From Candidatus Uhrbacteria bacterium (GTDB taxonomy: Bacteria > Patescibacteriota > Patescibacteriia > UBA9934), in the NCBI GenBank assembly GCA_903848275.1, contig CAINGB010000025.1, positions 4,713-68,712 of the forward strand: DNA of 64,000 nt, in the 5' to 3' direction. Below the pieces are notes generated by a model. It was not told where the DNA came from, ran no database searches, and worked only from the letters and a program-made list of their open reading frames with translations. The first letter of the stretch is position 1; each line of letters starts with the position of its first letter. A program made the position numbers and the translations under genes. This document shows positions 120 to 18,874 of the stretch, piece after piece.

Positions 120-3100
120 TTAAAGGGCGCAGTAGTTGAATTTGATGTTGCTGATGTTGACTTCGCCTACGCCAGTGTAGGTGACGCGAAGAGGTAGATC
201 CTGCTCAGCTGTTTGATCGCAGACAAAACCTTCCGGCCAAGGGAGAGCTACGCCAGTGCCTTCGGTCACGACACCTGTGGTCGAAGTTGTAGTTGCACCG
301 TTTGAAGTTAGGAGTTCAACCACGATACCGGTAAAGGACGAAACAATGGAGCTGAAAGCGTCGGCGATTTCGGTTGAAGCGGCGCCATTGTAAGCGTAGT
401 CAAGGTGATTAGTAGTGTTGGGAATAGTGCCATCTGACGTCAGTGCTGTGAAACGCGCGGCGGAATTACTCGACCAGCCAGCGATAGTACGAATGAGGGT
501 TGATGAACTGGAAGGTAGAGGAGCGATAGTGTAGAGCTCGTAGCCGGCAGCTTTGATTGAGTCGGCATTCGTTGAGGCACTTGAAGGCGAAGAGGCTCGG
601 CTGGCCTGAACTAGAACGATAGCCTTGCGGAAGTTACTCGTGACAGAGGATGTACCATCCAGAAGATGCTGAGCTAGGTTTAGACCGCTGGCAGTATCGG
701 GTTTACCGCTAGTTGTTGTATAGAGATCAATCAAGCCGGCGAGCGTACTTTCGTCAGCCGCGCTGTAGAAAGTACTGGTAGCGACTGGCCCGGAACGAGG
801 CATGTAAACTAGGCCGATGTGGACGTTGTCGTTCTGACGGAAGAGGTCGGAAATAGCTGTGCGCAGATCAGCCTTCACATCATCCAGACTGCTCGACATG
901 GCGGTCGTTAGATCCGTCACGAAGACCACGTAAATATCTGGTGAAGCGACATTATCGAGCGAGACGTCGGCGGTGAGGGTGGCGCCCAAGCGACAGGCTG
1001 GGAAGGTGATGGTAGCGGCGTTTGGGAGAATGGAAGTGGTAGTGGCGGAATAAGAGTAGAGGTCGACGCTAGAGGACGAGGCGGCGCCTGGTTGGTTGTC
1101 GGTCAAGAGCATGGCGTCGGAGAGGAAGGTGTCAGGACAAGTGGATCCACAATCATTGGCACAGACTGGGAACTGGCAGTCGTTGCTCGAGCAGTCGGCG
1201 TCAGAGAGACAAGTAGCACTGAGGCCGCGGATTGGATCCGAACTGTCACCGCCGTTGCACTGACCGACGGTTTGACAGACTTCGGTTTCATTAGCGGCAG
1301 CAATTCCATCGGAGTTAAGGTCGACAGAGATGCGCTGACCATTAGAAGTGCAGGTGCCAGTACCGACATAGGTATAACGGGTACTGGTCATGGTCGAGTC
1401 CCAAGCCGTAACCGGTGAAGAACCATAAATGGCTTCGACAGCGGGAACATAGGAGTTTGGTAAATCGTAAGCGTCGCAGTACTCGCTACCGTTGGCAACA
1501 CCGTCGCCGCAGAATTCGCCGGAGAGGCTGGTGTATTTGCAGCTGACGGAACAAGCCGTACAGGTGGATTCGTAAGCGCTGGTACAACCGGCACCGTTGT
1601 TTGCGCCTTCGTCACACTGCTCGGTGTCGAGTTCGAGGTAACCATCGCCGCAGACGTTAGTTTTACACTGATTGGTACAGGTGTCGCCGGAGTTGGTGTT
1701 GCCGTCGTCGCATTCTTCGCCAGTATCAACCACGCCGTCGCCACAATTATTGAGAGCTTTGCAAGTAATGCCTTCGTAACCTGTTGAGGCATCCGCCCAG
1801 TTGCAGGTTCCTCCATGCGCACCATCATCGTCACAAACACGGGTACGATAGGTTTGATAAGTGTTATTTGAGCAAGTGCCGCCAGCGCCACAGTCGTCAT
1901 CAGTAGTACAGGCCTGGCCGATGAGGGTGGCGTCGTCGCTAAGCTGACAAACGGTAGTTATCGGACAAGCGGTGAATGGTCCATGAAGCTGAACGGTTTC
2001 GTTACTAACGCCACATTTTGCTTGAGCTTTAGCACGAGCCGATCTGACACCAGCCTGACAATCGGCGTCCAATAAAGCTGGGTCACAAGACTGACCTTCC
2101 ATGGTACCGGAATTATTGTTACAGATAGTGCCGGCGTAGGAATCTGGTGCACCATCACAAACTTCCCCACTATCAATCACGCCGTCGCCGCAGTAGCTAG
2201 CTGGGCCTTGGCAGTCCCAAGCACAGGTGTTGTTTGGGTTGGAGTTGTAGTCACCGTTAAGGTAGCCAGATCCAGACGAGCCACCACAATAACGAGTTGA
2301 GCCATCGGTGGAATCAGTGCGGCCACCGTAAGGACGAGAGTCGGTGGAGGCAGAAGTTGAGGAACAGTCGCAGGCTTCGCTACCAGCTAAGCTGCCGTCA
2401 CCGCAGTAGAAGGCATCGACCGTGAGTTTACAAGTTGAGCCGCAGTAACCATAACGACCGTTCAGGGAGCCGTCATCACATTCTTCGCTGGCGGCATCGA
2501 TGAGACCGTTGCCACAAGTGGCGGCGACGCAGGTAGCGGAAGTGTCGGCGATGAAGGCTGAACAGGTGCTGTTGCAAACTTGAGAGATGGTACCGTCAAG
2601 AACAGTGGTGTCCGTGGTCGTGCTGCAAGAAGTGGTGGTGCCGCCGCGCTCGCCGATTTCGCAAACTTCGCTAGCGTTAACCACACCGTCACCGCAGTTA
2701 CCGGTGCTGCCGTAGATGGTAGTGCCGTCGCAGAAGACGGCGGTGGTGAAGCCAGCGGCCGTGCTGAGAGGACTCGAAACTTGGTAAGTGACGGCGTCGG
2801 TAGCACTGGTGTCATAGTCGTAGTACCAGGCACCGGTAGCATATTCGAGGTCAGCGTAGAGGGTGTAGCTTGCGCTGCCGGCTGCTTTGTAGTGGTAAAC
2901 GTGGCTACCAGCTGGACAGATGTACTGACCGTTGGCTTGGTTGACGCAAGTAGCGCTGTCGTAGCTAGCGAGAGGAGCCGTACCGCAACCGAGGAAGGCG
3001 TTAAGAGGATCGGCGACTAAACTGCTGTTGGCCAAAGCGCCACCCAGCAAGTCTGTCCAAGAACCCCAGACGCTAGCGCCGAGGCCACGAACGAAGGTGC

Positions 3101-6100
3101 CGGAACCGAGAGTTGGCACGTCGGAAGTAGCGTAGGTGGAGCTGTAAGTGCTGACTTCACTACTGATAGTGCGGAGGTCGGCCAAGCGTTTAACGTCGCG
3201 AGTTAATTTTATTTTGTTATTAGCACAAGTTTCGCCGGTAGCACAGTCGGCGTCGGCCGTACAAGTCTCAGTCGTGTAAGCTGAGCCGTCGGAACAGAGA
3301 GCGACGTCGCTGACGTTGGTGGCGAAAGAGAGGTTGGCGAGGAGCTGGTCGTAGATGGCGATGGTAGAGTCGCTGGCGCCTTCGTTGTAGGAAATGACGT
3401 AGATATTTGGGTAGAGAGTAGCGCCACTTTGGTTGACGGCGGCGATATAGGTGGTACGGCCGTCTTTAACAGCTTGGAAGCCGTCGGCGGTAGTGACAGA
3501 TGGACTGCCCGAGAAACCTTGAGCTGTGTACCAGGCCAGCGGGCTCAAGTAGTCGGAGTTGGTGACCACACGGTAACCAATAGCGTCGCCGCTGCCGTCA
3601 TTAACTTCGAAGAGATACTCCTTGAGGATATTGTCGGTCGTCGAGTAGTCGGCGGCGTTTTGGACGGTCAGAGCTGGATAGTCGTCCGTGGTGTCGGTGG
3701 TAGCTCCGGCGTCGCGGCAGTAGAAGTCCGAGAAGTTCATCCAACCAGAGCCAATGACAGCGCCGGTAGCCAAACTAGCGTCGTCGCTCCAAGGGAAGAC
3801 GGTGGTTTTGACGTCGGGCCAAGTATTTTCACAGAGGAAAGCGACAACTTTTTGCGTGCCAGCAATAGACGTACCTTCAGAAGTACCGAATTGATCGTAG
3901 TCGATGGTGGCGGTGGCCAATACATTAGCGTCGCCGTTCTTGCCGACAGCGGCGACCGCGGCAGTATCGGTAGCGCTAGGATCTGTGCTGCCGGTAGCAG
4001 TCACGATGGTAGCATTCATGTCGTCGGTCCAAGCCCAATTCCACGAGTAAACGCCGGACAAAGATTCGATTGGTTCGCTGGTCGTGCCGTTAAAAGTGTA
4101 AGCGGTGGCTGTAAAGTCGTGGCTTTCCGTAGCTTGTGAGAAGTAGTTTGGACTATCGGTATTGCCGTCTGTGACAGCTACACTGTCCAAAGTACAGATT
4201 TCTGAACCAGTTGAGAACTCTTGAGTGGCGGCGCCATGTACGTTATACATCGCTACCCCGTCAACAGAATGGACGCCTGGATGTGAAGCGTCAGTAACGT
4301 CGCTGTCAGTCATGACTTCTAGAGTGTAGTGAGCGTTGGCTAGCAAGGGGACGTCGTAGTGCATGGTGACTTTATAGCTAGTTACGTCAGGTGATGTTTC
4401 GATAGCGGTTTGTGAATAGGAAGCGACAGGCACAACACAATCGCCGGCAGCAGCCTCTGCTGAACGACCGGTGAAGAGCTGACGGACGTTAAGCCAGCTA
4501 CGAGAATACCAAGGAAGGTGCGAACTAACAGCCATGGCGAGCGAAGTGTGATCGCTAGGACAGAGGTGGCCAGGAACGGTAGTTAAGTCGAGCTTAGCAA
4601 ACATGAGCGGTTGTGCGGTAGCTGGCGCGGTGGGTGCAGTCAAGAACGTCGAGAGATCCATCTCGCTGCTAAAGAGACCGGATAGCTCGGCATTGCGGCA
4701 GACATTGCGTCCGGTTGGATGCAGGCTGACTGTTGGGCGAGCTAGGCAGCAGTTATTAACGCCGACACCAGTGGCTAATGGCAAATGACAGTCGAGATCG
4801 CTAACAGCTGAGCAGGAGAGAGAATAGGTGGTAGGTGTGGCTGAAGTAGTGATGCCAGAAACTGGTTCCGTGACGTACATGGAAGCAATGGCCAGCTTGG
4901 TAGCTGGGTCGACTTCCTGCGCGGCGTGGAGGTCAATGGCGGCCAATTGAGTGTCGTCAATACGGCTATCGCCACCAGAGGATTCACAAGTAGCGTATTC
5001 ACCAAGGCCGACCGTGCCATCACCGCAGAATGATGGAGTAGTGTAGGAAGTAGAGGAGCCAAGAAGGGTGCAAGATGATGAGCAATACTGTTGACCGTCG
5101 CAGTCTTCACCGGCACCAGTGGCAGCTTGAGTAGTGGCACCATCGCCGCACTTGCTGGCCCAGAAAGCACCACCAGCCGAACCTTCACGGAGACAGGAAG
5201 CGGAACAACCGTCACCACTGACACTATTGCCGTCGTCGCAAGTTTCGTAGTTTGGAGTAATGGTGCCGTCGCCGCAACGAGCGCCACCGATGTCAGCTGA
5301 ACTGACCGTGCCTTCGTTCAAGCAGAGTGAAGAACAACCGTCACCATTGGCCACGTTGCCGTCGTCGCAGTCTTCACCGCCCTGAGTAGGGTCATAAGCA
5401 ATGTCGTTGTTGCCGCAAGTGGTGTCGACAGAACGGGAACCTTCGTCAAGACAAGTGGCGGAACAACCGTCACCGTTCTTGGTGTTGCCGTCGTCGCAAT
5501 CTTCGCCGCTGCCGTCGCCAGCGCGATCGAGATGACCGTTGCCACAAACTGGCGCCCAGGTTGGACCACCGTTGCTACCTTCACGGAGACAGGATGATGA
5601 GCAGCCGTCGGCATTGGCAGTATTGCCGTCTTCACATTCTTCGCCGTGCAGAGTGTCGATGTGTCCGTCGCCACAAATTGCGGCGTAGGCCTGGCTGCCG
5701 CCTGGTGTACAAAGTGAGGTACAGCCGGCTGCAATGTCGTTCTTATTGGTGTCGATAGTAGCGCTTGGCAGCCAGTTGGCGACGTTAATGGTGCTGCTGT
5801 GGCCATTGTCGGTCCAGTTATGGAAGCTCCAGTTGTAACCGGTAGTGGCCAACAGCTGACCGGAGGTGGAACAGGCGTCAGGTACGCCGTAGGCAGAGAC
5901 TGCAAAGTTCTGACGCTCGCCAACCGTGGATGCCGTAGCGGCGTCCGGAGTAACGGCCAAACGGCTGACAGCACAAACGTCGGTGCCAGATTTCACGCCA
6001 AAGGTCCAGGAATAATCACCGGAGTAATTAGTGCGGGTTAAAGCAACACCACTTGGGGTAGCGACGTCACCCGAGATGACTACACGGTAGAAGGTACCAG

Positions 6101-9100
6101 GAGTGAGGTTGGTGCCAGAAGGTAAGGCAATGTCAGCTTGTTTGCAGTGAGTCGAGGCGTCGCTGGCGCAATTGGAGGCGCTCACTGAATAGGCGCGCAC
6201 TTCGTCGCCAACGCCGACGTTACAGAGTTCATTAGGACAAGCGTAGAGTTTAACGGCACCAGGAGCGACAAGCGTCGCGGCGTCCATGTCGGTATTGAAG
6301 GAGGCACCAATTAAACTGTTACGGCAAGCGCCGTCACAGCTTGGCCAGAAATCGGCGACGTAAGGATCCGTAAAGTTAATTGTGAGCACAGCGTTACCGT
6401 CGACATTGCTGGCTTGCTCTTGGGCGGTGACGTCCGTGGTGCCTTCGGCGTTGGCCTGAACGAGAGTGCAATATGAGTTACCGCTGGCACAGGCGTCACT
6501 CGAAGCAAGACCAGCGATACTTGGATCTACTGTCCAGTTGTAGGTGTACTTACTAGCATCGAGAACGACACAGCCGTCGCTTGGTAAGGCGTTGAAGGTG
6601 TCGGTGTTGCCTTGGGCGTCGATGGTGGCGGTAGCCGGCGAAACTGAGACATTATTAACAGCACAGGAAGCACCGGTACTGGAGACTAGGAAATGCCAAG
6701 AGTAATCGGCAGCCATAGCAATGCCGCCAGGGGAAGACTTGGCCGCGGTGCTGACCGTAACCTTGTAACTCGCAGCGTTAGCAAAAGGTGTATTTGGGAC
6801 CCAGGTGAAGGTGGTTGGCGAGGAGTCGGAAATAGTGAGAAGGCCGTCGGCCGTAATGTCCGTGCCGCCAGTGCAAGCGTCGCTGCTACACTTTTCGATT
6901 TTGACGGCGTCGTCGATAGTGCCGCGGTTCATGAGTTCCGTGAATTCAGCGTAAACTACAGCCTGAGGGCAGACGTCCGTAGTGAAAGTAGAGTTTGGTA
7001 CAGCGCTGATGCGACCACCAGGGGTGAGAGTACACTCAGTGACAATCTCTGGAGTTGTCGGAATTTTACCGGTTGAGAAATACCACTGATAGGCCGCTGG
7101 ACCTGGTGGGAGGGTGGTGGTAGTGGCGGCGCCGTAAGTGAAGTTGAGGGTGTTACTCGTGGCACCAGCCGCTGAGGTGATCTGCACTGGTCCGGAGGTA
7201 GCGCCTACTGGAGCCTTGACGGTGACAGCGGTGCTATTCCAGGCGCTGGTTAAAGTAGCTGGGATAGCGGAAAAGAAATCAACTGCGCCTGTACTTGAAC
7301 CGAGACTGCCGGTGATAGTAACCGTGTCACCGGCGGCGCCAGTGTTGGGCGAGATGGAACAGATGCCAGGGCTAGGCGCATTAGAAGTGATAGTGAAATC
7401 AGTAAGAGCCGAAGAGGCGCCGCTTTGGGCGACGAGATAAATGGCAAAATCAGTACCGGCGACAACCGGATTACCGTTTTGATAACTAGCCGGTACAATG
7501 ACAGTAACCTGAGTGTCAGACCAATAATCTGAGCAGGCGGCCGGGAAATCGACGCTAGCCAAGGCTTTGTAACCAGAAGTTTTGTTTTCGAAAAAGACTT
7601 GGCCGATATTGGCACCAAAGTTGCTGCCGGTTAAGGTAATGTAGTCGCCAATGGCAGCTGAGCTTGGGCTGATACTGGCGATGATTGGGACGGTTGTTGT
7701 AGCGGTCGCCAGGCTGTAGAGAATAGTATTGGAAGCCACGCCGCCCACAGTAACGCCGACTGGGTAGCTACCGTCACGAGCCGAAGGAGCCGTAACGTTA
7801 AGGGAACTATCGCTCCAGCCGCTGTAAGAACCGGCCGCGTTAGTACCGAAAGCAACAGTTGAGGTGCTTTGGGCGTCGCCGAAGTCTAAACCAGACAAAA
7901 CCACGGCGTCAGTTGGTGCGCCAGAGGCTGGCAACAGTGAACAAAGTTTAGGATGAACGACGTCGTTCACCACGAAGTCGTCGAAAATTTGACCGTAGTC
8001 GTCGTTACTCGAGTCACTGAGAGGCGTAGTAGCGCCAGTTGTGACCGTAATTGGGCCAGTCACAGCACCAACTGGAACCATCACAATCAAGCCGGTAGAA
8101 GACCAGGTGCTGCAAGATGGGCTGAGAGCGACGACTGTGCCGCCGTTAGCTGCGGTAAAGGTCACGGTTGGTTGTGTGTCGCCGAAGCCAACGCCGTCGA
8201 TAGTCACGAAGGTGCCAACAGCACCGGAGAGTGGCGAGATGCCAGTAATTTCTGGCAAGGCGGTACAAATGCCGTCCACACAGCTATCGCTTGGGCCGCA
8301 GTCGGCGTCAGAAGTACAGATGCTGCCAGAACAAGCGCCGCAGTAGTCGACGTTAGCGCTATCGCCACCACAGTTAAGGCCAGTTTCACCATGCGAGGTG
8401 TCGATAACGTCGTTAAAGCACCAAGGGCCACGGGCCGTAACATGAATGGTGTCGTCGCTCGTGTTGCCGGCGATGTCGGTGACGGTGGTGGCTAGCTTGT
8501 AGCTAGTGCTGTTGACGAGAGCTGTGGTATCCCAGTTAGTGGCGATGGTGGTGTCAGAAAGATCGGGGCCGGTGGCACCAACGGAGTCGAACTGCACGTC
8601 TTCTGCGCTAAAACTGGCGTCCGCCACTTGGCTGTCGTCTGTGGCATGGACTTGGACGAGGGCAGAAGAACCAGATTCCACGCTGCCGCTTGGGATAGTG
8701 ATGACGGCGGTTGGGTTAGCGACGTCGACGAGGTTGCCGGTGGTGAAGGAGGAAGTACAGCTGGTGGTGGTACAGACAAGCGTAGTACCGTTGGTGCTTT
8801 TTACGGCCGTGGAAACACTGACCGAGAAGGCAGTGTCTGCATCAAAACAGAAACGGGTGTCATTTGGTGATGGACAAGCGGCGTTAGGCCGGAAGCTGGC
8901 ACTATTACTGCTAACCGTGATGGTGCCGTCGATGACTGCGCCGCTAGCGGTGTTTTTGACGACTAGATTATTAGCAAGAGTAGCGGCGTCGAGAGTCTTG
9001 GAGAAAGTAACTTTAAGGAGGACGTTGCGGATGGCGACCGGGCCGTCTGGTGAATAGTCCGTCACCGAGAAGGCTGAGGTGCTGCTACTACCGCCGAATC

Positions 9101-9527
9101 CCCCGCCGCTGCCGTTACCACTGCTGGTGTTGCCGCCGCCAGCGCCAGTGGCGTTAAGCAACGCGGAAAGGATGAAGCTGGCAATCGCGAAGGAGAGCAG
9201 GATGATGGCCAGGCCAATGACGCCACGAATGAGGATTTTCTTGGCGCGTTCTAATTTTTCTTCGTTGCCGGCCGCGGTCATCCAAGTAAAGCCACCGTAG
9301 AGGACGATAAGTACTGAGAGAATACCGAGAACGCCAATGACCACGCGGATGATGCGAGCGATGATGATTTTAGGGTCTTCCGCCGTGAGGCCGGAGGCAG
9401 CGCCAACGTCGGCCAGGCTACTGGTGACTTGAGCTAGGAGGTGTGGAGCGTGCAAAAATACGCCAGCCGCAATGAGGCCAAGGACAGAAGGAAGAACGTA
9501 TTTAAGGCGGAACCAACGCATAGCCAA
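120..9527 (-). CDS. Giant (3135 aa) secreted or surface-anchored multidomain protein. N-terminal TM segment plus TrbC/VirB2-like pilin-type domain, then a Gly/Ser linker, Ig/IPT-like repeats, at least 12 Myxococcus-type Cys-rich repeats and a possible vWA-like C-terminus.
   Basis: One uninterrupted 9.4 kb ORF. N-terminus: hydrophobic segment, then ...LYGGFTWMTAAGNEEKLERAKKILIRGVIGLAIILLSFAIASFIL (pilin-like amphipathic/TM helix pair). Repeats CGDGHIDTLHGEECEDGNTANADGCSSSC, CGNGHLDRAG..EDCDDGNTKNGDGCSATC and others match the C-G-D-G-x-E-x-C-D-D-G-N-x-DGC-x-C pattern. IPT-like ITGISPLSGAVGTFVTIDGVGFG. C-terminal DIYVVFVTDLTTAMSS.. segment is vWA-like. Confidence 0.85.
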   Translation of the reverse strand: MAMRWFRLKYVLPSVLGLIAAGVFLHAPHLLAQVTSSLADVGAASGLTAEDPKIIIARIIRVVIGVLGILSVLIVLYGGFTWMTAAGNEEKLERAKKILIRGVIGLAIILLSFAIASFILSALLNATGAGGGNTSSGNGSGGGFGGSSSTSAFSVTDYSPDGPVAIRNVLLKVTFSKTLDAATLANNLVVKNTASGAVIDGTITVSSNSASFRPNAACPSPNDTRFCFDADTAFSVSVSTAVKSTNGTTLVCTTTSCTSSFTTGNLVDVANPTAVITIPSGSVESGSSALVQVHATDDSQVADASFSAEDVQFDSVGATGPDLSDTTIATNWDTTALVNSTSYKLATTVTDIAGNTSDDTIHVTARGPWCFNDVIDTSHGETGLNCGGDSANVDYCGACSGSICTSDADCGPSDSCVDGICTALPEITGISPLSGAVGTFVTIDGVGFGDTQPTVTFTAANGGTVVALSPSCSTWSSTGLIVMVPVGAVTGPITVTTGATTPLSDSSNDDYGQIFDDFVVNDVVHPKLCSLLPASGAPTDAVVLSGLDFGDAQSTSTVAFGTNAAGSYSGWSDSSLNVTAPSARDGSYPVGVTVGGVASNTILYSLATATTTVPIIASISPSSAAIGDYITLTGSNFGANIGQVFFENKTSGYKALASVDFPAACSDYWSDTQVTVIVPASYQNGNPVVAGTDFAIYLVAQSGASSALTDFTITSNAPSPGICSISPNTGAAGDTVTITGSLGSSTGAVDFFSAIPATLTSAWNSTAVTVKAPVGATSGPVQITSAAGATSNTLNFTYGAATTTTLPPGPAAYQWYFSTGKIPTTPEIVTECTLTPGGRISAVPNSTFTTDVCPQAVVYAEFTELMNRGTIDDAVKIEKCSSDACTGGTDITADGLLTISDSSPTTFTWVPNTPFANAASYKVTVSTAAKSSPGGIAMAADYSWHFLVSSTGASCAVNNVSVSPATATIDAQGNTDTFNALPSDGCVVLDASKYTYNWTVDPSIAGLASSDACASGNSYCTLVQANAEGTTDVTAQEQASNVDGNAVLTINFTDPYVADFWPSCDGACRNSLIGASFNTDMDAATLVAPGAVKLYACPNELCNVGVGDEVRAYSVSASNCASDASTHCKQADIALPSGTNLTPGTFYRVVISGDVATPSGVALTRTNYSGDYSWTFGVKSGTDVCAVSRLAVTPDAATASTVGERQNFAVSAYGVPDACSTSGQLLATTGYNWSFHNWTDNGHSSTINVANWLPSATIDTNKNDIAAGCTSLCTPGGSQAYAAICGDGHIDTLHGEECEDGNTANADGCSSSCLREGSNGGPTWAPVCGNGHLDRAGDGSGEDCDDGNTKNGDGCSATCLDEGSRSVDTTCGNNDIAYDPTQGGEDCDDGNVANGDGCSSLCLNEGTVSSADIGGARCGDGTITPNYETCDDGNSVSGDGCSASCLREGSAGGAFWASKCGDGATTQAATGAGEDCDGQQYCSSSCTLLGSSTSYTTPSFCGDGTVGLGEYATCESSGGDSRIDDTQLAAIDLHAAQEVDPATKLAIASMYVTEPVSGITTSATPTTYSLSCSAVSDLDCHLPLATGVGVNNCCLARPTVSLHPTGRNVCRNAELSGLFSSEMDLSTFLTAPTAPATAQPLMFAKLDLTTVPGHLCPSDHTSLAMAVSSHLPWYSRSWLNVRQLFTGRSAEAAAGDCVVPVASYSQTAIETSPDVTSYKVTMHYDVPLLANAHYTLEVMTDSDVTDASHPGVHSVDGVAMYNVHGAATQEFSTGSEICTLDSVAVTDGNTDSPNYFSQATESHDFTATAYTFNGTTSEPIESLSGVYSWNWAWTDDMNATIVTATGSTDPSATDTAAVAAVGKNGDANVLATATIDYDQFGTSEGTSIAGTQKVVAFLCENTWPDVKTTVFPWSDDASLATGAVIGSGWMNFSDFYCRDAGATTDTTDDYPALTVQNAADYSTTDNILKEYLFEVNDGSGDAIGYRVVTNSDYLSPLAWYTAQGFSGSPSVTTADGFQAVKDGRTTYIAAVNQSGATLYPNIYVISYNEGASDSTIAIYDQLLANLSFATNVSDVALCSDGSAYTTETCTADADCATGETCANNKIKLTRDVKRLADLRTISSEVSTYSSTYATSDVPTLGSGTFVRGLGASVWGSWTDLLGGALANSSLVADPLNAFLGCGTAPLASYDSATCVNQANGQYICPAGSHVYHYKAAGSASYTLYADLEYATGAWYYDYDTSATDAVTYQVSSPLSTAAGFTTAVFCDGTTIYGSTGNCGDGVVNASEVCEIGERGGTTTSCSTTTDTTVLDGTISQVCNSTCSAFIADTSATCVAATCGNGLIDAASEECDDGSLNGRYGYCGSTCKLTVDAFYCGDGSLAGSEACDCSSTSASTDSRPYGGRTDSTDGSTRYCGGSSGSGYLNGDYNSNPNNTCAWDCQGPASYCGDGVIDSGEVCDGAPDSYAGTICNNNSGTMEGQSCDPALLDADCQAGVRSARAKAQAKCGVSNETVQLHGPFTACPITTVCQLSDDATLIGQACTTDDDCGAGGTCSNNTYQTYRTRVCDDDGAHGGTCNWADASTGYEGITCKALNNCGDGVVDTGEECDDGNTNSGDTCTNQCKTNVCGDGYLELDTEQCDEGANNGAGCTSAYESTCTACSVSCKYTSLSGEFCGDGVANGSEYCDAYDLPNSYVPAVEAIYGSSPVTAWDSTMTSTRYTYVGTGTCTSNGQRISVDLNSDGIAAANETEVCQTVGQCNGGDSSDPIRGLSATCLSDADCSSNDCQFPVCANDCGSTCPDTFLSDAMLLTDNQPGAASSSSVDLYSYSATTTSILPNAATITFPACRLGATLTADVSLDNVASPDIYVVFVTDLTTAMSSSLDDVKADLRTAISDLFRQNDNVHIGLVYMPRSGPVATSTFYSAADESTLAGLIDLYTTTSGKPDTASGLNLAQHLLDGTSSVTSNFRKAIVLVQASRASSPSSASTNADSIKAAGYELYTIAPLPSSSSTLIRTIAGWSSNSAARFTALTSDGTIPNTTNHLDYAYNGAASTEIADAFSSIVSSFTGIVVELLTSNGATTTSTTGVVTEGTGVALPWPEGFVCDQTAEQDLPLRVTYTGVGEVNISNIKFNYCAL

Positions 9528-12528: not shown

Positions 12529-13074
12529 TTATTTAGTAGATTTTATCTTTTTGATGGCTCGCGCTACAGAAAATACAAACTCCAAATCTTTTGTTGAGTA
12601 TTCTGAGTCTATAGCAGTCAGGGTTCCTATATGTAGGCGATTTCGCAGAATTCGTACTTTGTCAACATCTTTATAAATCTGTTCGTTGATAACTGAGTGA
12701 TCCCGACAAAGAGTGTTAATATCACCTAAATTTAATTTACCTAGCTTTACATGTTCTATGCTCACTACATGAGAGCCTAAAACGATGCGATCTTGATTAT
12801 TAATTTTATAAAGTTCTCTGGAAATCTTAAAGCTTTTTGTTTCTCTAGTTAAATTTTCTTCAGAGACCATGCTCTTCAAAAACCAAACCAGTAGTGCTTC
12901 GATAATTGAAGCGGTATAAACAATAGCAGTTTTCCTAAAGCTACTTCTGAGCGAAGAGGTGTATGTTGGTAAATCTGATAGATATACTAATTCCATCAAA
13001 TGCTCAAATGCAGTGTAGATGTTTCCCCTTAGAATGTCGTCTTCAACAAAAGAAAAATTGGACATTCTAGACAT
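12529..13074 (-). CDS. Hypothetical 181-aa protein in a low-GC insert. It may be an HEPN/Abi-like nuclease (Rx6H-type motif VRILRNRLHIG); this is speculative.
   Basis: An AT-rich ORF inside a GC-rich chromosome. The only motif is R-x6-H near the C-terminus. No confident homology from sequence alone. Confidence 0.4.
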   Translation of the reverse strand: MSRMSNFSFVEDDILRGNIYTAFEHLMELVYLSDLPTYTSSLRSSFRKTAIVYTASIIEALLVWFLKSMVSEENLTRETKSFKISRELYKINNQDRIVLGSHVVSIEHVKLGKLNLGDINTLCRDHSVINEQIYKDVDKVRILRNRLHIGTLTAIDSEYSTKDLEFVFSVARAIKKIKSTK

Positions 13075-13089
13075 AAATAATATTACAGC

Positions 13090-13263
13090 CTAGGCATCCT
13101 GTAGCATACCGGCCAATGAAGGATAGCCTTTCTCAATAAAAAACTCGCCAAGTTTTTTCTCTGAATGAGCACCAAAATCAGTTCCGAGTTTTTTAGCGAT
13201 GACACTAATTTTAGTATCGAACTTATATATTTCCTCTCGAGTCTTAATTGCCTTCTTTTTCAT
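13090..13263 (-). CDS. Small hypothetical protein (57 aa) directly upstream of the 181-aa ORF. It is not in the supplied ORF track.
   Basis: By my translation it reads MKKKAIKTREEIYKFDTKISVIAKKLGTDFGAHSEKKLGEFFIEKGYPSLAGMLQDA*. It ends 15 nt before the next ORF and has the same low GC. Confidence 0.3.
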   Translation of the reverse strand: MKKKAIKTREEIYKFDTKISVIAKKLGTDFGAHSEKKLGEFFIEKGYPSLAGMLQDA

Positions 13264-16275: not shown

Positions 16276-16373
16276 AGGGAAATATGCAAAATTACTCACA
16301 GTATAGCACAAAATAGGAAAAAATCAAGTATGGCATGATTACAAAAAAACAGCCACCGAAGTGACTGATTTTT

Positions 16374-16450
16374 TGGTGGACATTGGTGGGCTCGAACCAC
16401 CGACCTCTGTCGTGTGAGGACAGCGCTCTAACCAACTGAGCTAAATATCC
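16374..16450 (-). tRNA. tRNA-Val (anticodon CAC)
   Basis: Cloverleaf GGATATT/aatgtcc acceptor stem, anticodon stem ctgtc/gacag with loop cTCACAc, T-loop GGTTCGAGCC, and an encoded CCA. A hairpin plus T7 terminator lies downstream (16330-16373). Confidence 0.85.
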
Positions 16451-16518: not shown

Positions 16519-17136
16519 TCAAGTCCTGCGTCTTTTAGTTAGACTGATTTGGATAACGCGGCTCATCGGCCTGTAGTCTTGCTTCATGCCGACTATACAG
16601 GCTTCGATGTAAGCTCTTTGACTGCTCTTTTTCCAAGCTATTTGCTGATAACCAATGCGTGTAGCTATAACATCTAAAAATAAACGAATTGTTCGGCCGT
16701 TGCCTTCACGAAAGGGGTGAATAGCATTGAGTTCGCAATGGATGAGGGCGAGCTTGTCAGTAATCTGCTTCTTAGTGTCATCGATGGAAGGAATATTCTG
16801 CCTGAGAATGCGATCGAAATCTGCTAGAGCCGAGCCGATAAAATTAGCCGAACAGAACATGGCGTCACCCTTACTAATATTTACGGTACGAATTTTACCG
16901 GCCCAGACATAAAGAGGTTCCAGAAAATAATAGTGAATTTTTAATAAAAATGAAACATCGATAACTTTAGGAATGGCGGCATTGGGTCCTAAAAAATATT
17001 CTTTAGCATCTAAGTAAAGAATAGCCTCAGTGTTCTCGAGTTTGGCTTGGTCTTTAATACTGAGTTTATTTTTCAGAACGCCATCTTCCATGCCAGCCTC
17101 GCCGGCAGTCGAACTATACCGAGAAGGCGCGGCCAT
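16519..17136 (-). CDS. fic: Fic/Doc family protein (toxin of a class I FicTA module)
   Basis: Canonical Fic motif HPFREGNGRTIR. Confidence 0.85.
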   Translation of the reverse strand: MAAPSRYSSTAGEAGMEDGVLKNKLSIKDQAKLENTEAILYLDAKEYFLGPNAAIPKVIDVSFLLKIHYYFLEPLYVWAGKIRTVNISKGDAMFCSANFIGSALADFDRILRQNIPSIDDTKKQITDKLALIHCELNAIHPFREGNGRTIRLFLDVIATRIGYQQIAWKKSSQRAYIEACIVGMKQDYRPMSRVIQISLTKRRRT

Positions 17137-17272
17137 ATTGTTTGAGTTTTTTTATGGTGGCAGTGTCTTTTAAGGCGCGGCGTAAACTGATGCCTTCCAT
17201 CTTTAACGATTGTGCAGCCGAAGCACGTATTGCCCTCTTACTAATGACTCTTCGTTTGTTGAGTGCTTTCAT
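17114..17272 (-). CDS. Fic antitoxin (VbhA/YhfG-like, 52 aa). It carries the inhibitory [ST]xxxE[GN] motif and overlaps the fic start by 23 nt in another frame. It is not in the supplied ORF track.
   Basis: My translation: MKALNKRRVISKRAIRASAAQSLKMEGISLRRALKDTATIKKLKQYGRAFSV*. The segment SLKMEG fits S-x-x-x-E-G. Confidence 0.6.
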   Translation of the reverse strand: MKALNKRRVISKRAIRASAAQSLKMEGISLRRALKDTATIKKLKQYGRAFSV

Positions 17273-17371
17273 ACAGTCGCTTTTATTAGCTTAATTATAC
17301 CAGAAATTAGGGTGATAGGCAACCGTGCTGCGTTGTTTAATTCTGATGATTCAGCTATACTCCCAGTAGTT

Positions 17372-18874
17372 ATGTCAGACCAACATTCCGTCGATTTTTT
17401 GCAGCAAAAGTACGAAGTGCCGGTGGAACGCGTAGTGCGGGCCAAGGTTTCGCGTACCGGCCGATATATTGCCGGATTTTTAGTTATTGGCGCGGTGGTG
17501 GGAACCTTTTTTTCTTATAAGTTGGCGCAAATCACGCACGGCGATGAGTCTGACGTGGGTAGTTTGAGTATCTTCTCCACCATTACCTCAAGCATCTCGC
17601 ATCTGGTCGGAAGTCCTGACCGACCGCTAGTTGGCGAGGAAACCGATCGCATCAATTTTTTGCTGATGGGTGTCGGCGGCACTGGACATGATGGTGCACA
17701 ATTGGCGGATACAATTATGTTCGGCAGTTTTAAGCCAAGTACAGCTGAATTGGGTTTGCTCTCAATTCCCCGCGACCTGTACGTAGCCATTCCGGGCTAC
17801 AGCAGCGGCAAGATTAACCACGCCAACGCTTACGGCGAAATGAATGGCACGGGACAGGGTTTAAAGCTGGGGAGCGACGTGGTGAGTAGCGTCGTCGGCC
17901 AACCGATTGATTATACGATTCGCGTCGACTTTGACGGCTTTTCTAAATTGATTGACCAGTTGGGTGGCGTGAATGTTTACATTGATAAGAGTTTTGATGA
18001 CTACCAATTTCCGGAATACGAAGGCTCGCCAACCTACAAGACTCTCCATTTTGTGCAAGGTTATACCCATATGAACGGGGCCGAGGCTTTGGATTACGCC
18101 CGTTCACGACACGGCAACAACGGCGAGGGTACCGATTACGCCCGCGCTGCTCGTCAGCAGAAAATTTTAATGGCGGCTAAAGAGCAAGCTCTGTCGCTTG
18201 GTGTTTTGTTGAATCCGGTTAAACTAACTAAACTTTTCAGCACACTCAGTAGTCATATCGCTACCAATCTCTCAGTCTGGGAGATGATCAAGATGGCCAA
18301 GTATGTGCCGAGCATTGACCCTAAAGCGGTGGCCATGCAGGTGCTCGATACTAGCCCAGGCAGTCCCCTTTACAGCACGACCACGGAAACGGCGGGCTTC
18401 ATTATTTTGCCAAAGAGCGACAATTGGAGCGATATTCAGAAGATTGCGGCCAATATGTTCGTGTCAGCCGGAGCTAAAGCCAGCACTAGTGTACCTGTAG
18501 CTGCGGCTGCTACGCCAGTTGTTAAGGTAGAAATCCAGAACGGGACCGAAGTTTCCGGCCTGGCTTATCAAACGGCAGCTCGTTTAACAGGCTCGAGCTA
18601 TGAGGTGGTCAGTGTGGGCAATGCCACCGACAGAACAGTGGCCAAAACAACTATCTACGACCTGACCAACGGCCGAAAAGCCGCTGAATTGGCAACGTTA
18701 AAGCAGTTTTTGGGAGCTGATGTGGTCCTGACTGGCGAGGGCTGGACTTATGCAGACAACGTGGTGCCGACCAAACTGCAAACGATTTCCAGTAGCGATA
18801 CGGCTAAAACAAGCGAAAAAGTTGACTTTTTGATTATAGTGGGTCAAGATGCGACTTCTCTCGTATTGAAATAA
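17372..18874 (+). CDS. LytR-CpsA-Psr (LCP) family cell-envelope phosphotransferase with a LytR_C-like C-domain
   Basis: DRINFLLMGVGGTGHDGAQLADTIMF...LSIPRDLYV LCP core. The start is taken at MSDQHSV, because the longer ORF would overlap the fic antitoxin. Confidence 0.8.
   Translation: MSDQHSVDFLQQKYEVPVERVVRAKVSRTGRYIAGFLVIGAVVGTFFSYKLAQITHGDESDVGSLSIFSTITSSISHLVGSPDRPLVGEETDRINFLLMGVGGTGHDGAQLADTIMFGSFKPSTAELGLLSIPRDLYVAIPGYSSGKINHANAYGEMNGTGQGLKLGSDVVSSVVGQPIDYTIRVDFDGFSKLIDQLGGVNVYIDKSFDDYQFPEYEGSPTYKTLHFVQGYTHMNGAEALDYARSRHGNNGEGTDYARAARQQKILMAAKEQALSLGVLLNPVKLTKLFSTLSSHIATNLSVWEMIKMAKYVPSIDPKAVAMQVLDTSPGSPLYSTTTETAGFIILPKSDNWSDIQKIAANMFVSAGAKASTSVPVAAAATPVVKVEIQNGTEVSGLAYQTAARLTGSSYEVVSVGNATDRTVAKTTIYDLTNGRKAAELATLKQFLGADVVLTGEGWTYADNVVPTKLQTISSSDTAKTSEKVDFLIIVGQDATSLVLK

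Follow-up and report, generated by a model that had tools for sequence, protein, structure and literature searches.

A probable class I Fic toxin-antitoxin operon with an unannotated antitoxin family in a Candidatus Uhrbacteria genome

In class I Fic systems (Engel et al. 2012, as described in PMC5033356), the inhibitory motif [S/T]xxxE[G/N] is carried by a separate small protein that is encoded immediately upstream of the Fic gene. In the reference systems, the glutamate of this antitoxin is salt-bridged to the final arginine of the FIC motif, and productive binding of ATP is blocked; the FIC motif is defined as HxFx[D/E]GNGRxxR, and roles have been described for its two arginines, R1 and R2 (PMC5033356, PMC13327609). 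Both VbhT and Fic-1 transfer adenosine monophosphate (AMP) to GyrB, and VbhT also modifies topoisomerase IV (PMC5033356, PMC13327609). AMPylation of GyrB by Fic-1 is blocked by the antitoxin glutamate, and the complex of Fic-1 with its antitoxin AntF can remove AMP, an activity reported to need the antitoxin glutamate as well (PMC13327609). Here we describe a pair of overlapping genes in a 64,000-nucleotide (nt) stretch of DNA from a Candidatus Uhrbacteria bacterium (contig CAINGB010000025.1; the whole stretch is referred to as the window, and coordinates are those of the window). With a probability of roughly 85%, we read this locus as a class I Fic toxin-antitoxin (FicTA) operon whose antitoxin belongs to an unannotated family. 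Systems of this type are familiar; the novelty here is limited to a third sequence family of antitoxins, which neither Pfam nor NCBIfam contains, and a dual-coding overlap of antitoxin and toxin. In the literature that we searched, no paper was found that names both Patescibacteria and FicT or FicTA. The reading turns on the following features.

17114..17272, minus strand: putative FicA-type antitoxin gene, 52 amino acids (aa) (open reading frame (ORF) reading, family conservation, profile similarity)
16519..17136, minus strand: Fic gene, 205 aa, single-domain FicT-type (Pfam PF02661, PDB sequence search, fold, PADLOC)
17114..17136, minus strand: dual-coding overlap, 23 nt (ORF reading, comparison with the orthologous locus, family statistics)
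17192..17209, minus strand: codons of the predicted inhibitory-helix motif, S22-L-K-M-E26-G27 (sequence reading, family invariance)
16684..16719, minus strand: FIC active-site loop, H140-R151 (sequence reading, invariant alignment columns)

The product of the larger gene matches Pfam PF02661 with an expectation value (E) of 6.9e-16 and a score of 59.3 bits, the gathering cut-off being 24. Its active-site loop, HPFREGNGRTIR (residues 140-151, H140-P-F-R-E-G-N-G-R148-T-I-R151), fits HxFx[D/E]GNGRxxR, is invariant across 18 aligned homologues and includes both ATP-binding arginines, R1 being R148 and R2 being R151. The nearest solved relatives in a sequence search of the PDB are VbhT (7e-22), EcFicT (2e-17) and Fic-1 (1e-16), and the best NCBIfam matches are to VbhT and Fic, both under their equivalog cut-offs. 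The same kinship is seen in the fold: an AlphaFold2 model of the protein (predicted local distance difference test, pLDDT, 87.5) retrieves VbhT (3shg_A) as the top Foldseek match, with template modelling (TM) scores of 0.82/0.85 and a root-mean-square deviation of 2.2 Å, followed by Bep effectors, EcFicT and Fic-1. Foldseek returned 92 matches with E <= 1e-3, and at least the best 50 of these 92 are Fic proteins. The protein retains every catalytic residue of an AMP-transferase.

A motif scan finds no [ST]xxxE[GN] within the 205-aa Fic polypeptide, and among 120 Fic homologues an internal copy is present in six, at scattered and non-conserved positions. Since an intramolecular inhibitory motif is absent, the protein is not a class II or class III Fic; the motif is found in the upstream ORF, as in class I. 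We place the start of the Fic gene at 17136, and the resulting N-terminus, MAAPSRY, is the right one, as it matches the homologues' MA(E)xSRY, where S-R-Y is present in 118 of 120. One public gene call (P0003) shortens Fic to 190 aa by starting it at M16 (17091), after a Shine-Dalgarno-like GAGG. This start was discarded, since the homologues conserve the upstream MAxxSRY and not M16. The 190-aa call drops the conserved MAAPSRY and masks the overlap with the antitoxin gene.

The upstream ORF, MKALNKRRVISKRAIRASAAQSLKMEGISLRRALKDTATIKKLKQYGRAFSV, occupies a different frame from that of Fic, and its motif, S22-L-K-M-E26-G27, presents E26 as the predicted inhibitory glutamate. A direct search found two relatives of the 52-aa protein and an exhaustive phmmer search eight; a profile of those eight reached 127, and the family comprises at least 120 proteins, each of ~50 aa. 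The serine, glutamate and glycine of the motif are shared without exception by 121/121 family members, position -2 being K/R and position -1 M/L/I, and the family consensus is ..K(A)V(A/S)QSSKMEGLS(F/L)..AKKNK..I..LK.YGRAF(S/A)(V/I). Chance matches to [ST]xxxE[GN] are rare: of the 250 mechanical ORFs of 40-70 aa in the window, 4 contain the pattern. At L001, an orthologous locus whose contig measures 1.09 Mb, 9 of the 28 core codons are identical, 15 differ by synonymous changes only and 4 carry a replacement; this predominance of synonymous differences indicates purifying selection on the 52-aa ORF at the protein level. Based on these sequence comparisons, we take the ORF to be a genuine gene. 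As far as source names were seen, they place the family mainly in Patescibacteria (Uhrbacteria, Komeilibacteria, Pacebacteria).

Direct and profile hidden Markov model (HMM) searches place the 52-aa protein in no Pfam, NCBIfam or PADLOC family. The public gene caller overlooked the ORF at 2 of 4 related loci; the product itself does figure among public gene calls, and one member of its cluster (with another sequence) is labelled 'hypothetical protein' there. Neither Pfam nor NCBIfam detects a DNA-binding domain in it. VbhA and FicA are not known to have such a domain either. Modelled alone by AlphaFold2 (pLDDT 70.6), the protein is predicted to form helices at residues 12-25, 30-35 and 37-45, the first of which ends at E26-G27.

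The small gene lies directly upstream of a Fic gene or its remnant in all loci examined, with an overlap of 8, 23, 29 or 35 nt. Six independent genomic contexts were inspected; save for L095 (below), the small gene precedes and overlaps a Fic gene of ~200 aa, and the flanking genes are otherwise unrelated. When metagenomes were scanned with an alignment of eight antitoxin sequences, 33 loci were obtained, and a Fic gene or remnant starts within the 3' end of the antitoxin gene in 33/33. In 24 of these 33 a Fic gene follows with an overlap of 23, 29 or 35 nt, and in nine a Fic recognisable by its MAxxSRY has a frameshift, is truncated, lacks a start or survives as a stump. Approached from the other side, loci reached through the Fic protein carry the antitoxin ORF upstream, with the 23-nt overlap, in 4/4 cases. 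More indirectly, 18 antitoxin clusters match a Fic cluster from an independent Fic search by an identically sized longest contig. This is the layout of a type II toxin-antitoxin system, namely a co-directional, overlapping pair with the antitoxin first, kept in unrelated neighbourhoods.

The two genes differ in how they are preserved. At one locus (L095) the small gene is intact and is followed by a 44-aa Fic stump, and no intact Fic of this clade without an antitoxin was seen among the loci examined. Since intact Fic is always found with the antitoxin, and Fic is often broken beside an intact antitoxin, the pattern is that expected of a poison-antidote pair. Loci with a broken Fic hold orphan antitoxins left after decay of the toxin. 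They are L095, L102, L103, L107, L108, L110, L114 and L126-L128, and their Fic defects comprise a frameshift, an N-terminal deletion, truncation, a change of ATG to ATA, and stumps of 16-45 aa. As a separate observation, some members of the antitoxin family lie beside HicA/HicB-type modules (L114; L087 5285-5720), and protein P0181 is an in-frame fusion of the antitoxin with a HicB-like segment; these neighbours suggest that small toxin-antitoxin gene clusters occur in these genomes.

The first-pass annotation of the window had proposed a complete class I module at this site, made up of a Fic ORF with a canonical active-site loop and a 52-aa ORF whose coordinates, strand, 23-nt overlap with the Fic start and SLKMEG motif were all read as they are read here. 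Each of these proposals is upheld by the evidence above: the loop and its invariance, the invariant motif residues, a Fic without an internal motif, the small upstream gene under purifying selection, the conserved pairing and the decay of the toxin. The two findings by which it would have been refuted, a small ORF unlike Fic antitoxins and a Fic with its own inhibitory helix, were both looked for, and neither was made. Its description of the antitoxin as untracked is correct in that no family model covers it and a gene caller misses it at two of four related loci, and too strong in that the product can be found in public gene calls.

The relation of the small protein to known Fic antitoxins was judged by profile comparison. 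Small ORFs upstream of other Fic genes served as controls and do match the Pfam models of VbhA and YhfG (the YhfG controls at 1e-15). From these control ORFs we built a VbhA-like alignment, which retrieves solved VbhA, and a YhfG-like alignment, which retrieves solved AntF and YhfG. With hhalign, the new family aligns to the VbhA-like set with E 1.6e-4, the serine and the Glu-Gly pair being in register; the score of 24.0 exceeds those of all 150 column shuffles (mean 8.5, maximum 16.4). The alignment to the YhfG-like set is weaker (E 0.025), and its score was reached by 2/150 shuffles. For comparison, the two accepted families, YhfG-like and VbhA-like, align to each other with E 4.9e-4. Therefore, at the level of profiles, the new family appears about as close to VbhA as YhfG is, the likeness being limited to the inhibitory helix. 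A common extended core can be written as S-x-(K/R)-(L/M)-E-G followed by a hydrophobic residue, and VbhA, YhfG and AntF carry S-x-R-L-E-G. Since it falls outside both Pfam VbhA and Pfam YhfG by HMM, we regard the antitoxin as a third sequence family. The initial comparison with the motif of VbhA/YhfG-type antitoxins thus stands, with the qualification that the protein belongs to neither Pfam family.

Several observations weigh against our interpretation of the locus. Eight family members gave no match to the Pfam VbhA model (PF18495) even at E <= 10, the Pfam YhfG model (PF10832) matched no family member, and neither the 52-aa protein nor its family matched the solved antitoxin chains in the PDB. 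The profile signal to the VbhA-like set spans only 26 columns, with an HHalign probability of 50%. Foldseek with the model of the isolated antitoxin returned only noise, so that the fold search is uninformative, and the confidence of the model is moderate; such noise is to be expected for a short helical peptide that likely folds on its partner. The asymmetry of decay between toxin and antitoxin is subject to ascertainment bias, as most loci were found via an intact antitoxin. Finally, class I architecture does not guarantee AMPylation, as EcFicT shows; EcFicT, however, lacks R1 (PMC5033356), which is kept here.

By analogy with the described pairs, we suggest the following mechanism. The 52-aa protein would bind Fic, and E26 would sit against R151, the last arginine of HPFREGNGRTIR, as in VbhA/VbhT, EcFicA/EcFicT and AntF/Fic-1. 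ATP would then be unable to bind productively and AMP transfer would be blocked. Free Fic would adenylylate a cellular target and cause growth arrest, which is the least secure step of the scheme; by the example of VbhT and Fic-1, the most likely targets would be GyrB and ParE.

The overlap between the two genes is read twice. In one frame, TAT GGC CGC GCC TTC TCG GTA TAG encodes the antitoxin tail Y-G-R-A-F-S-V-stop, and in the other, ATG GCC GCG CCT TCT CGG TAT encodes M-A-A-P-S-R-Y of Fic. At Fic residue 4 the family has P, H, R or L, whose codons here are all CNN and keep the antitoxin alanine (GCN, 107/121), and the antitoxin phenylalanine (111/121) demands T at a wobble position of Fic; these patterns indicate that both frames of the overlap are constrained. 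The antitoxin of the orthologous locus ends earlier (..KQYA), with an overlap of 8 nt, and the tail is therefore not indispensable. A further feature bears on the expression of the pair.

17294..17322, minus strand: promoter-like site, -35 TTGCCT, 17-nt spacer, TG-extended -10 TATAAT (consensus matches)

This good sigma-70-like site is located in the 99-nt spacer that separates the antitoxin gene from the divergent LytR-family gene; it has 10/12 consensus matches in addition to the TG extension, and its block, GGTTGC..TTTCTGGTATAAT..GCTAATAAAAG, is nearly unchanged in the orthologous locus. This one promoter-like site, upstream of the small gene, probably drives both genes. No Shine-Dalgarno-like sequence precedes the Fic ATG at 17136. 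Because this ATG lacks such a sequence and lies inside the antitoxin gene, translational coupling is likely, and translation of Fic probably relies on ribosomes fresh from antitoxin synthesis. Coupling of this kind would hold the toxin at or under the level of the antitoxin.

A different arrangement was observed in a large group of Fic proteins of 205-217 aa, with N-termini of the form M..RY...EPGS..VL.NKLGI, whose members include Yersinia, Serratia, Pantoea, Castellaniella, Salinivibrio and Synechococcus. In this group we found neither a motif-bearing ORF upstream nor a motif inside the Fic protein. At 24/24 loci with a locatable Fic gene (L008, L012, L018, L020-L025, L030, L034, L040, L046, L048, L050, L052, L053, L058, L060, L067, L072, L073, L083, L085), a small ORF on the opposite strand converges on the 3' end of Fic, mostly overlapping it. 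This ORF measures ~50-65 aa after trimming of mechanical long starts and lies ~0-200 nt past the Fic stop. The conserved element downstream of the proteobacterial Fic genes was also considered as a transfer RNA (tRNA) or transfer-messenger RNA; ARAGORN found none, and the element proved to be the small convergent ORF. Its core, (R)AVA(S/T)STA(I/V)ETG or SSSA(I/V)EG, has the form S-x-x-x-E, the ORF has no Pfam or NCBIfam family, and it aligns in register with the antitoxin family of the window (hhalign E 2e-4). A convergently encoded inhibitory-helix protein would be an unusual toxin-antitoxin layout.

Three biological roles are not separated by the evidence: that of a toxin for addiction or stress, that of a defence system and that of a reversible switch in regulation. 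The pair could be a standing regulatory enzyme with the same anatomy as a FicTA operon, in which the complex, as its normal working form, would remove AMP and free Fic would add it, the balance tuning topoisomerase activity. Fic-1-AntF, reported as a deAMPylase that needs the antitoxin glutamate, includes one of the close solved relatives of the Fic described here, and the module holds the same chromosomal position, by housekeeping genes, in two diverged genomes, like the vertically inherited EcFicTA (PMC5033356). Set against this, the module stands in unrelated neighbourhoods in other Patescibacteria and is AT-richer than its flanks (GC content 41-43% versus ~51%), as expected for a mobile module. 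Frequent inactivation of Fic beside a surviving antitoxin also better fits a dispensable, harmful toxin than a housekeeping enzyme, and we consider a regulatory role of this kind unlikely.

Anti-phage abortive infection, in which a phage would free Fic and AMPylation would halt the infected cell, is compatible with the FicTA mechanism. It draws on a full-length match of Fic to the HMM of the PADLOC defence candidate PDC-S04 (E 1.2e-53, residues 11-199; SoFic matches more weakly) and on one locus (L093) where an integrase and a further Fic gene are found close to the module. PDC-S04 is, however, a computational candidate only, and the one test in a native host that we found in the literature detected no defence. 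No defence genes adjoin the module in the window, and relatives of the antitoxin were not found on IMG/VR viral contigs or PLSDB plasmids. We hold a defence role to be rather improbable.

The surroundings of the operon include a tRNA gene, with which mobility might be connected.

16374..16450, minus strand: tRNA-Val(CAC), 68 nt past the Fic stop codon
16494-16522: promoter-like site belonging to tRNA-Val itself
16350-16367: terminator-like hairpin beyond tRNA-Val

Upstream of the operon lies a divergent LytR/LCP-family gene, separated from the antitoxin gene by an intergenic spacer of 99 nt; its start is likely at 17372, because the orthologous product has 500 aa. The downstream neighbours encode signal peptidase I and histidyl-tRNA synthetase. 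The first-pass annotation had pointed to the tRNA as a common integration hotspot. The adjacency is real, but integration is not borne out. Recent integration of a mobile element at tRNA-Val, with the module as its cargo, would suit this adjacency, the GC contrast with the flanks, and the presence in the orthologous locus of four extra genes beyond the 3' end of the tRNA. The module is situated, however, 5' of the tRNA. The only genes called between LytR and signal peptidase I are the module and the tRNA, so that an integrase is lacking, and no att-like repeat of the tRNA 3' end flanks the module. The order LytR / antitoxin-Fic-tRNA-Val, the promoter and the spacer are moreover kept in the orthologous locus, although the module proteins are only ~58-60% identical; the tRNA-Val there occupies the same position with 100% identity, the spacer between Fic and tRNA is conserved, and other family members are not beside tRNAs. 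A tRNA-targeted genomic island was rejected on the grounds of side, integrase, repeats and conserved order, and recent arrival as cargo is very improbable. We conclude that tRNA-Val is a neighbour of the module and stands outside its mechanism, and that the module probably arrived by horizontal transfer in the past, with vertical inheritance in this lineage from then on.

The four extra genes of the orthologous locus (L001 5056-7215) are RNA polymerase alpha C-terminal domain-like, NUDIX, unknown and HIT-like, and lie between tRNA-Val and signal peptidase I. They are missing at 16311-16374 of the window, and there the peptidase gene comes straight after the terminator of the tRNA. Between these two loci, the variable side of tRNA-Val is its 3' side, opposite the Fic module. 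Elsewhere in the window, a single ORF of 3135 aa spans 120-9527 on the minus strand, and the GC content dips sharply to ~35% at 12600-13200, with surroundings of ~50-55%, coinciding with a 181-aa ORF at 12529-13074 on the minus strand.

That the 52-aa ORF arose by chance, or encodes a small protein unconnected with Fic control, could be argued from its lack of a database family and of an obvious Shine-Dalgarno sequence before it, but this is hardly credible given a family of at least 120 with invariant motif residues, substitutions dominated by synonymous changes and invariable linkage to Fic.

For genome annotation, the consequence is a gap that can be named: a family of ~50 aa (KAVAQSSKMEGLSF..AKKNKK.I..LK.YGRAFS) goes with several hundred Fic genes in Patescibacteria and a few other lineages, has no model and is at times not called as a gene. 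A family model would allow class I FicTA systems to be recognised in these genomes. The inhibitory-glutamate solution recurs here amid very different surrounding sequence. The finding leaves the understanding of Fic regulation unchanged, and its value for annotation is modest.

Among the known systems, VbhT/VbhA of Bartonella schoenbuchensis (3SHG, 3ZC7) is the best match to the Fic domain described here in both sequence and fold. Both toxins have a canonical HxFx[D/E]GNGRxxR with R1 and R2, and both antitoxins are small helical proteins, predicted as such here, that are encoded directly upstream, with a first helix ending in S-x-x-x-E-G and with profiles in register; in the VbhA sequence as we read it, the motif likewise appears to close the first helical segment. 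The two systems differ at the C-terminus of the toxin, where VbhT has a long BID domain that serves type IV secretion and the protein in the window is a Fic domain alone, and in the antitoxin tail after the motif, which is basic here (A-K-K-N-K..I..L-K-x-Y-G-R-A-F) and forms acidic helices in VbhA. The conserved N-terminal tyrosine lies in S-R-Y in the present Fic and in D-P-Y in VbhT, and the S-R-Y segment is likely the counterpart of the D-P-Y 'lid-lock' in other class I Fic proteins. The Y-G-R-A-F tail of the antitoxin shares its bases with this S-R-Y. It is conceivable, if improbable, that the antitoxin holds a second control element there, such that the overlap ties together translation, N-terminal autoinhibition and antitoxin binding, and that the pair would act as a reversible AMPylase/deAMPylase switch on topoisomerases in reduced-genome Patescibacteria and not as a simple poison-antidote pair.

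In overall dimensions, the operon resembles Fic-1/AntF of Pseudomonas bijieensis (8WT0) and EcFicT/EcFicA (YhfG, 5JFF), which likewise combine a single-domain Fic of ~200 aa with an upstream antitoxin of ~55 aa. AntF and EcFicA belong to Pfam YhfG (PF10832), to which the present family aligns only weakly. EcFicT has lost R1 and is probably no AMP-transferase (PMC5033356), whereas the Fic in the window keeps this arginine. PDC-S04 is by definition a lone Fic gene without a partner and is experimentally unvalidated; here, in contrast, a partner antitoxin is always present.

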